Shown here: one piece after another, positions 13,516 through 14,707 of the stretch
How positions within the stretch are numbered: the stretch's first letter is position 1
How the letters are laid out: each line of letters begins with the position of its first letter
Source: a virus
Lineage: Duplodnaviria > Heunggongvirae > Uroviricota > Caudoviricetes
Strand: one strand, 5' to 3'
DNA length: 14,865 nucleotides
Virus record (IMG/VR): IMGVR_UViG_2531839179_000012
Notes under the pieces: generated by a model
Database searches by the model: none
Seen by the model: only the letters and a program-made list of their open reading frames with translations
What the model was told of the DNA's origin: nothing
Position numbers and translations under genes: made by a program

Positions 13516-13889
13516 TGCGCCATGAGTTTATTTTACCTTATCCGCCGACGGTGAATACTTACTGGCGACGTCGTGACAACACATATTTTGTATCAAAAGC
13601 CGGTGAGCGTTATCGCCGGGATGTGGCGCTTATTGTCCGTCAGCAGCGGCTGAAATTAAGCCTGTCCGGAAGGCTGGCGATAAAGGTGATTGCAGAGCCA
13701 CCGGATAAGCGTCGTCGCGACCTGGACAATATCCTGAAAGCACCGCTGGATGCGCTGACGCATGCGGGAGTGTTAATGGACGATGAGCAGTTTGATGAAA
13801 TCAATATCGTTCGTGGTCAGCCAGTATCTGGTGGACGTATGGGGGTGAAGATTTACCCCATAATGCATGAAGAGCAGGTCAAAAAATGA
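13515..13889 (+). CDS. rusA: RusA-family Holliday junction resolvase (124 aa)
   Basis: PDKRRRDLDNILKAPLDALTHAGVLMDDEQ matches the recalled E. coli RusA motif [23 protein letters not shown]. Located in the nin-like position just upstream of Q. Confidence 0.85.
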   Translation: MRHEFILPYPPTVNTYWRRRDNTYFVSKAGERYRRDVALIVRQQRLKLSLSGRLAIKVIAEPPDKRRRDLDNILKAPLDALTHAGVLMDDEQFDEINIVRGQPVSGGRMGVKIYPIMHEEQVKK

Positions 13890-14707
13890 AACTGGAAGAT
13901 TTACCGAAATACTACTCCCCAAAATCCCCTGGCCTGACCGATGCATCGGCCTCAACGTCAAAAGATGCGCTGAGTATCACTGATGTGATGGCCGCGCAGG
14001 GCATGACACAGAATCGGGCTGAGATGGGGTTTTCTGCGTTCCTGGGGAAAATGGGCATCAGTATGAATGACAGGGCGCGGGCAACAGAATTACTGGCAGA
14101 TTATGCACTCAGTCGGTGCGATCGTGTGGCGGCGTTGAGAAAACTTCCGGCAGAAATAAAACCGGTAGTGATGCGCATTATGGCTTCGTACGCTTTTGAG
14201 GATTATGCCCGCAGCGCAGCGAGTAAAAAGCAGTGCCCTTGTTGCTATGGGGAAAAATTTATTGAAAGCGTAGTTTTTACAAACAAGGTCCAGTATCCGG
14301 ATGGTAAGCCGCCGGTATGGGCAAAGTGTACGAAAGGTGTGTATCCGTCTTACTGGGAAGAATGGAAAAAAGTCAGGGAGGTGGTAAAAGTTGCCTGTCC
14401 GGAGTGTGGCGGAAAGGGTGAGGTTTCCACCGCCTGTAAGGATTGCCGTGGGCGTGGTGTCGCCATTCACCGTGAAGAGTCGGTAAAACGTGGTATGCCT
14501 GTTATCAGAGACTGCCAGCGTTGTGGTGGTCGTGGCTATGAAAGACTACCATCAACGGAGGTATTTAATGCTATATGCGAGGTGACAAACCAGATAACAC
14601 GCGCGTCATGGGAAAAAACAGTTAAGAAATTCTATGATGCGCTGGTGACCCGGTTTGATATTGAAGAAGCATGGGCTGAGCGGCAGTTAAAAAAGGTAAC
14701 TAGGTAA
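13886..14707 (+). CDS. Late-gene antiterminator, lambda Q family, with an internal insertion of about 65 aa carrying extra CxxC motifs
   Basis: Colinear with my recollection of lambda Q: MKLEDLPKYYSPKSP...ITDVMAAQGM...ASYAFEDYARSAAS...CKDCRGRG...CQRCGGRGYERLP...WEKTVKKFYDALV...VTR. 273 aa against a recalled 207 for lambda. Immediately followed by a PR'-like promoter. Confidence 0.75.
   Translation: MKLEDLPKYYSPKSPGLTDASASTSKDALSITDVMAAQGMTQNRAEMGFSAFLGKMGISMNDRARATELLADYALSRCDRVAALRKLPAEIKPVVMRIMASYAFEDYARSAASKKQCPCCYGEKFIESVVFTNKVQYPDGKPPVWAKCTKGVYPSYWEEWKKVREVVKVACPECGGKGEVSTACKDCRGRGVAIHREESVKRGMPVIRDCQRCGGRGYERLPSTEVFNAICEVTNQITRASWEKTVKKFYDALVTRFDIEEAWAERQLKKVTR

Follow-up and report, generated by a model that had tools for sequence, protein, structure and literature searches.

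The 14,865-nucleotide stretch of viral DNA analysed here (hereafter the window; Caudoviricetes, IMG/VR record IMGVR_UViG_2531839179_000012) carries at 13886..14707, on the plus strand, a Q antiterminator gene of the Qλ family, encoding 273 residues and a stop codon. We consider its product (window Q) very probably to be the ordinary, already-annotated late-gene antiterminator of a lambdoid Escherichia coli prophage, built on the four-knuckle architecture that the majority of the family shares, a knuckle being a CxxC motif of the zinc-finger-like type. Set beside λ Q the protein appears expanded by a zinc-binding module, yet this appearance arises from the choice of λ Q as the reference, which family-wide is a reduced form.

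Membership of the Qλ family is supported by every defining feature that could be tested and is contradicted by none of the evidence. The protein matches PF03589 (Antitermination protein Q) at 183.3 bits against a cutoff of 26.7, it matches phrog_127 ('anti-termination protein Q-like', profile length 253) from end to end (E 3.8e-111), and its best match among all PDB chains is λ Q (7ubm_Q, 207 residues; phmmer, E 1.3e-39), all of which agrees with the family assignment made in a preliminary description of this DNA. It is predicted to have the fold of the family, a four-helix body with a helix-turn-helix (HTH) and a zinc-ribbon arm, and its gene has the expected position, with rusA upstream and a late promoter, a σ70 pause element, a terminator and lysis genes downstream. 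The RusA Holliday-junction resolvase gene (13515..13889, plus strand) lies directly 5′ of Q, its TGA stop codon overlapping the Q start codon as ATGA, a RusA-then-Q arrangement typical of the lambdoid nin region.

The protein is also widespread. It is 100% identical to RefSeq WP_000762890.1, annotated 'antitermination protein', and the exact 273-residue sequence occurs on at least 1000 contigs under the record title 'MULTISPECIES: antitermination protein [Enterobacteriaceae]'; of the complete E. coli genomes, 5426 in number, 2511 contain near-identical DNA, CFT073 among them, and a 98.9%-identical Q is found in the phage genome record mEp460_ev081. The exact protein and its architecture are thus already known, and the same architecture is found in the Q protein of phage φ80, which has been studied (Guo & Roberts 2004, J Bacteriol 186:3599, as cited in PMC9388147).

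Domain layout and the knuckle 1+2 module

Alignment with λ Q (phmmer) gives two colinear blocks, residues 1-113 corresponding to λ 1-113 and residues 182-273 to λ 116-207, with 39% identity across the 207 common residues, and the same gap, at residues 114-181, opens when window Q, λ Q and P22 gp23 are aligned with MAFFT. The block missing from λ and P22 Q is 66-68 residues long and cleanly bounded. The preliminary description had placed an insertion of about 65 residues in a protein otherwise colinear with λ Q at both ends and across the zinc region; the colinearity holds, and so does the insertion, at about 68 residues, the difference between its boundaries (117-185) and ours being trivial in a block flanked by repeats of the same motif.

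The features of window Q, all on the plus strand, follow one another without rearrangement relative to λ. Residues 1-44 (13886..14017) are the equivalent of the N-terminal torus (nozzle) segment of Qλ, whose role is described in PMC9388147; they are 52% identical to λ, include the invariant G39, and have low pLDDT in the AlphaFold2 (AF2) model, which is expected because the segment is disordered when free. Residues 45-113 (14018..14224) form the first half of the helical body and end in a conserved DY-RSAA(S/T) motif before the zinc region. The block absent from λ and P22 Q, residues 114-181 (14225..14428), contains knuckle 1, a β-hairpin and knuckle 2, and is followed by the λ-type zinc-ribbon arm (14435..14536), made of knuckle 3 (CKDCRGRG, residues 184-191), a β-α-β tip and knuckle 4 (CQRCGGRG, residues 210-217). 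This arm is homologous to Qλ C118xxC121...C144xxC147: C184, C187, C210 and C213 align to λ C118, C121, C144 and C147 and are invariant in 45 homologues, which makes them the predicted zinc ligands. The second half of the body, residues 219-273 (14540..14704), holds the HTH region and a C-terminal helix ending in VTR, and is 61% identical to mEp237 Q and 25% identical to φ80 Q. Alignment with λ and other Q proteins shows G39, L268 and T272 to be conserved. λ Q (PDB 4MO1, 7UBJ-7UBN) and P22 gp23 thus share with window Q the Pfam family, the torus segment, the helical HTH body and the C-terminal VTR, and the arms of λ Q and window Q carry CxxCxGxG...CxxCxGxG at an identical 26-residue spacing, whereas λ and P22 Q have no counterpart of knuckles 1 and 2 or of the hairpin between them.

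Four CxxC motifs, three of them in a DnaJ-like CxxCxGxG arrangement, had been noted before, and they start at residues 117 (CPCCYGEK), 171 (CPECGGKG), 184 (CKDCRGRG) and 210 (CQRCGGRG), the last three being full CxxCxGxG. Knuckle 1 (residues 117-124, 14234..14257) departs from this spelling, its family consensus being CDCCxGxG; in knuckle 2 (residues 171-178, 14396..14419) C171, C174 and G176 are invariant. Across the 45 homologues (54-91% identity) the knuckle cysteines and glycines are invariant or almost so. When the protein was shuffled 200,000 times, the frequency of four or more CxxC motifs was 5e-4, and no shuffle produced four CxxCxG motifs; the four-knuckle pattern is not due to chance. 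The AF2 model, built from the 45 homologues (mean pLDDT 79.8), predicts that residues 125-170 (14258..14395) form a long two-stranded β-hairpin, with 12-residue strands at 125-136 and 159-170 and a loop at 137-158 that contains short helices, and it predicts the arm as knuckle 3, a short strand, a helix (196-202), a short strand and knuckle 4. The full model and a model of the sub-domain 108-222 agree on the order of elements from knuckle 1 to knuckle 4.

We infer that knuckles 1 and 2 form a second, separate and autonomous Zn(Cys)4 site, next to the λ-type arm site of knuckles 3 and 4. The two CxxC pairs of the Qλ arm, the only ones in that arm, hold a single zinc (PMC9388147), and independent 1+2 and 3+4 sites are favoured because this arm has a clear homologue in knuckles 3 and 4 together with the stretch that separates them. 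The same pairing is favoured because all reduced variants lose knuckles 1 and 2 together and keep 3 and 4, the cut lying after the conserved SAA(T/S)P and before knuckle 3, and because two strands of equal length sit between knuckles 1 and 2. λ and P22 Q, without these knuckles, should consequently bind one zinc where window Q would bind two. In minimal members of the family about 6 residues separate knuckles 1 and 2, so that the long hairpin would be an elaboration of the loop of the 1+2 site. We found no experimental structure or mutational study of the knuckle 1+2 module in the PDB or the searchable literature (excluding Guo & Roberts 2004), and a PDB chain search showed that the reduced λ protein is the subject of all solved Qλ-family structures and that none of them contains the extra block.

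The long form across the Qλ family

φ80 Q (gp17, 269 residues), mEp237 Q (276 residues), mEp460 Q (250 residues) and YdfT/QuuQ of E. coli K-12 (250 residues) all carry the same block with its extra knuckles. Among the 120 best homologues of window Q, 107 of the 111 full-length proteins have exactly four CxxCxG motifs; the lengths of the full-length homologues cluster at 260, 271, 273, 276 and 277 residues, and the precomputed Pfam annotation of homologues lists PF00684 (DnaJ_CXXCXGXG) beside PF03589. An exhaustive search of 1.84 billion 50%-identity cluster representatives (E ≤ 1e-3) returned 235 matching representatives only, so the family is compact. Four or more knuckles occur in 30 of the 46 representatives of 195-300 residues, and the λ-type two in 5. 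The distance from knuckle 2 to knuckle 3 is always 13 residues in these representatives and that from 3 to 4 is 25-26 residues, as in λ, whilst that from 1 to 2 ranges from 14 to 63; the linker between knuckles 1 and 2, about 6-50 residues long, is the length-variable part of the family. What the preliminary description took for a noteworthy expansion is accordingly a block common to a Q subfamily that includes the studied φ80 Q, and that claim does not survive the survey.

A neighbour-joining tree was built on the regions common to both forms (midpoint rooted and without support values, hence only indicative), and in it the two-knuckle forms (λ/P22/P0215, P0181, P0246 and P0195) occupy 3-4 distinct positions, interspersed with four-knuckle forms. 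Loss in λ-like lineages appears likelier than gain elsewhere because the two-knuckle forms are few and scattered in the tree; four knuckles would then be the ancestral or default state, and λ-type Q would have lost a module. What is known of the structure and mechanism of the Qλ family has all been learned from the two-knuckle λ protein, whilst most members have a second putative zinc site at the hinge. The long form includes φ80 Q, K-12 YdfT and prophage Q proteins with control over genes for tRNAs, lysis and (in relatives) toxins.

Of the named relatives, φ80 Q matches window Q in its long architecture and in the position of the extra block. The two proteins are 41% identical overall; their hairpins are 59% identical (VFTNKV.YP.GKPP.W...PS.WE.W..REV..V.C), against 25% in the C-terminal HTH body. 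The comparison with mEp237 Q is the reverse, the hairpin (residues 125-170, 14258-14395) being 31% identical and the body 61%. The hairpin thus behaves as a mosaic cassette, which suggests that recombination has broken the gene at the knuckles. YdfT/QuuQ (b1559, Qin cryptic prophage) and mEp460 Q, both annotated 'putative antitermination protein Q', have four CxxCxG knuckles with the spacings of window Q (13 residues from 2 to 3, 26 from 3 to 4); they differ in a linker from knuckle 1 to knuckle 2 that is about 19-23 residues shorter and in a knuckle 4 that reads CGRCNGNR, and are ~43% identical to window Q.

Knuckle 3 is one residue shorter (CRCxGxG, CxC in place of CxxC) in φ80 Q, where it reads CRCHGKG (locus L001, 1501-2307), and in the family members P0123, P0157, P0164, P0166 and P0246. 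As this shortening occurs in several independent lineages, the arm zinc site would either tolerate CxC or use a different ligand geometry.

The late promoter and a proposed mode of action

Immediately downstream of Q, alignment to λ, P22, φ80, mEp237 and mEp460 identifies a PR′-like late promoter at 14713..14740 on the plus strand, and beyond it lies an intrinsic, tR′-like terminator with a 7-bp GC-rich stem and a U-run (14788..14814, plus strand); a promoter and terminator of these kinds had been anticipated next to the gene, and both are there. The promoter consists of a -35-like TTGATT (14713-14718), a 16-nucleotide spacer, TTTCCGGAATCTGTGG, that contains the presumed Q-binding element (QBE; 14719-14734), and a -10 hexamer TAAATT (14735-14740) that is identical to that of λ and preceded by an extended -10 TGn. 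The spacer is close to that of mEp237 and similar to, yet different from, that of φ80 (TTCGCGGAAAAACTGGA), whose record annotates the Q site there, together with pR′ and terminators at equivalent positions; the λ spacer differs from it as well. Six bases after the -10, at 14747..14755 (plus strand), lies AACGATGGG, identical to the initial transcribed -10-like, σ70-dependent pause element of λ PR′; when 6 late promoters of the Qλ family are aligned, 5 conserve it, φ80 having AACGCTGGG. The architecture (-10, pause element and spacing) is alike for long-form and short-form Q. We also observed a perfect 8-bp palindrome, TTCCGGAA, in the presumed QBE spacer (14720-14734); at its position mEp237 has TTCCCGAA and φ80 has TTCGCGGAA, whereas λ has neither a palindrome nor TGn.

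The predicted leader RNA is about 65 nucleotides long (leader fold -20.6 kcal/mol, z -2.1), and no Rfam family was found in the PR′-tR′ leader. No λ paQ/CII-type TTGCN6TTGC site occurs in 13886-14707, and the window-wide count of such sites is that expected by chance. The first 15 nucleotides of a tRNA gene with anticodon CAU, annotated tRNA-Ile, lie at 14851..14865 (plus strand), cut by the end of the window, so that at this locus, in contrast to λ, tRNA genes follow tR′. In a homologous locus (L002, 4966-5215) the order is tRNA(CAU), tRNA-Arg(UCG) and tRNA-Arg(UCU), then holin and lysozyme genes, a three-tRNA layout that we take to resemble ileZ-argN-argO of Shiga-toxin phages. Expression of the three tRNAs would be Q-dependent. 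In CFT073 an IS200C element sits between Q and the first tRNA.

Qλ binds the QBE as an extended monomer, with its HTH body at positions 1-4 and its zinc-ribbon arm at 11-13; the arm tip touches σR4, residues 110-112, 117 and 122-126 touch the zinc-binding domain (ZBD) of the β′ subunit of RNA polymerase (RNAP), residues 1-44 form with NusA a torus that constricts the RNA-exit channel and obstructs terminator hairpins, and the arm swings by ~75° about the body/arm hinge (PMC9388147; bioRxiv 10.1101/2022.03.25.485794). By homology window Q should work in the same way, with its antitermination activity and the identity of its QBE taken over from this comparison. The helical body and the arm (knuckles 3 and 4) would bind the QBE between the -35 and the -10 of 14713-14740, whilst RNAP would be held at the σ70-dependent promoter-proximal pause by AACGAT (14747-14752). 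Q would then load onto RNAP, its N-terminal ~44 residues acting as a nozzle in the RNA-exit channel; this modified polymerase would pass the terminator at 14788-14814 into the tRNA, lysis and late genes.

In such a scheme knuckles 1 and 2 would sit at the base of a lineage-variable β-hairpin projecting from the body/arm junction. The extra block lies exactly at this junction and adjoins the residues that in Qλ touch the β′ ZBD. From this position it is plausible, as a guess, that the hairpin braces the arm hinge, makes an added contact to the β′ ZBD, NusA or DNA, or does both. More broadly, we put forward tentatively, as a minority possibility, that the knuckle 1+2 site and its variable, recombining hairpin serve most Qλ-family proteins as a functional accessory module, making a contact that λ Q lacks (e.g. 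to the β′ ZBD, NusA or promoter-upstream DNA). If this were true, the λ Q structures would describe an atypical, minimal member of the family, and the majority form would load in a manner that differs in its details. The promoter and pause architecture common to long and short forms argues against a fundamentally different mechanism.

Alternative explanations and the rest of the prophage

The preliminary description raised the prospect that a λ-type Q had been altered in its engagement with RNAP or the QBE by an added zinc module, and a recent, unusual gain of 65 residues is indeed what the clean 66-68-residue block would look like if λ and P22 Q were the only points of comparison. The block lies beside the residues that contact the β′ ZBD in Qλ, at the ~75° arm hinge, and is present in no solved structure, all of which would suit a novel engagement; yet it is found in most of the family, φ80 Q and K-12 YdfT included, the two-knuckle forms are a scattered minority in the neighbour-joining tree, and the late promoters of long and short forms are alike. 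A recent gain is largely refuted by the family comparison and we give it hardly any credence. A tandem internal duplication of the λ-type zinc-ribbon arm, yielding a 'two-armed' Q, is somewhat more probable, though still unlikely. Block and arm share the knuckle spelling and the knuckle-β-tip-β-knuckle layout, and a BLASTP comparison of the two gives an alignment of 29 residues that ends in knuckle 2 of the block and knuckle 4 of the arm (E 0.007, as a single comparison), whereas hhalign of 112-182 against 180-222 aligns only the 9-residue motif CxxCxGxG(F/Y), with a probability of 12%, and, with ~6 residues between knuckles 1 and 2 in minimal members, an arm-like ancestral unit is not required. 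The Pfam annotation does not help this explanation. The 87-position PF03589 profile matches both halves of window Q end to end, at residues 24-111 (13955-14218, 81 bits) and 178-265 (14417-14680, 109 bits), and these two 'Antiterm' stretches were considered as a trace of an arm duplication and rejected, as they flank the block and do not cover it. Between the two stretches there is no BLASTP alignment and the hhalign probability is 0.3%; PF03589 seems to be a composite model, with the two stretches per protein not an internal repeat. Apart from the shared motif, nothing in the sequence supports the arm having been duplicated in tandem.

The four knuckles might instead be a true DnaJ-type cysteine-rich domain (Zn1 from knuckles 1+4, Zn2 from 2+3), captured from a chaperone or sharing its protein-binding function, which we regard as improbable. 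Four repeats of the DnaJ type are there, three exact and the fourth CPCCYGEK, and the DnaJ cysteine-rich domain (PF00684), anti-TRAP and BSD2, which share repeated CxxCxGxG, were the only structural neighbours of the isolated zinc region, and weak ones. The match to PF00684 stays below its curated threshold (29.0 bits against 32.7), as does that to TIGR02349 (25 bits against 377); no J-domain, G/F region or C-terminal β-sandwich domain was detected in window Q, whose zinc region is flanked by the helices of the Q body. By curated threshold and by context, window Q is not a member of the DnaJ cysteine-rich family. The zinc topology of DnaJ, a V-shaped hairpin with two zinc centres reportedly formed by knuckles 1+4 and 2+3 (Martinez-Yamout et al. 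2000), also differs from the 1+2 and 3+4 pairing favoured for window Q, and a chaperone context is missing here. We are about as sceptical of the suggestion that a decaying prophage has left the gene as an inert remnant, its anatomy having no present function. What speaks for decay is that the window has an IS30-like transposase and a DnaB-like helicase that looks split, and that in CFT073 IS200C is inserted between Q and the tRNAs; the Q open reading frame (ORF) is nevertheless intact and occurs in identical form on at least 1000 contigs, as intact as the promoter, the pause element and the terminator, a phage genome record holds a copy with 98.9% identity, and all predicted zinc ligands are conserved.

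The reading of window Q as an ordinary, four-knuckle Qλ-family antiterminator has some points to its discredit. Zinc binding and the 1+2/3+4 pairing are predictions from homology, from the joint loss of knuckles 1 and 2 and from the modelled strands, and the neighbour-joining tree has no support values and deals with mosaic Q genes, so that a loss in λ is likely rather than certain. A generic σ70 scan of 14500-14865 did not call the late promoter, which was identified by alignment, and the prophage may be defective because it holds the IS30-like transposase and the split helicase.

The two halves of this DnaB-like helicase are encoded by separate ORFs on the plus strand, with the N-terminal domain (PF00772) at 11870-12451 and the C-terminal domain (PF03796, matched from profile position 30) at 12482-13261, which could reflect either a genuine split or, if the prophage is decaying, a frameshift or stop; an IstB/DnaC-like loader ATPase (10986-11873) precedes them. 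The IS30-family-like transposase (HTH_38 and an rve integrase core; 1836-2987, minus strand) lies in the early region of the prophage, and a CI-like repressor (HTH_3 and Peptidase_S24) is encoded at 5004-5735 on the minus strand. Two RNAs were identified by Rfam on the plus strand, the Hfq-binding RNA isrK (9068-9144, 61.9 bits) and the C4 antisense RNA (9169-9256, 80.1 bits), and both fall inside a mechanically called ORF (8012..9859, 615 residues) in which the recognisable domains, Ash (residues 349-443) and Rha (residues 454-543), occupy only the second half. The real gene in this interval probably starts after the RNAs, as in an antirepressor module of the P1 c4/ant-like or Gifsy isrK type. 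In related loci a 349-residue DUF968/YdfU-like protein is encoded two genes upstream of Q (mEp460_ev081, locus L008, 1068-2117; L002, 2568-3617), and the label 'Phage antitermination protein Q' that it bears in mEp460_ev081 is probably a mis-annotation carried over from a neighbouring gene.

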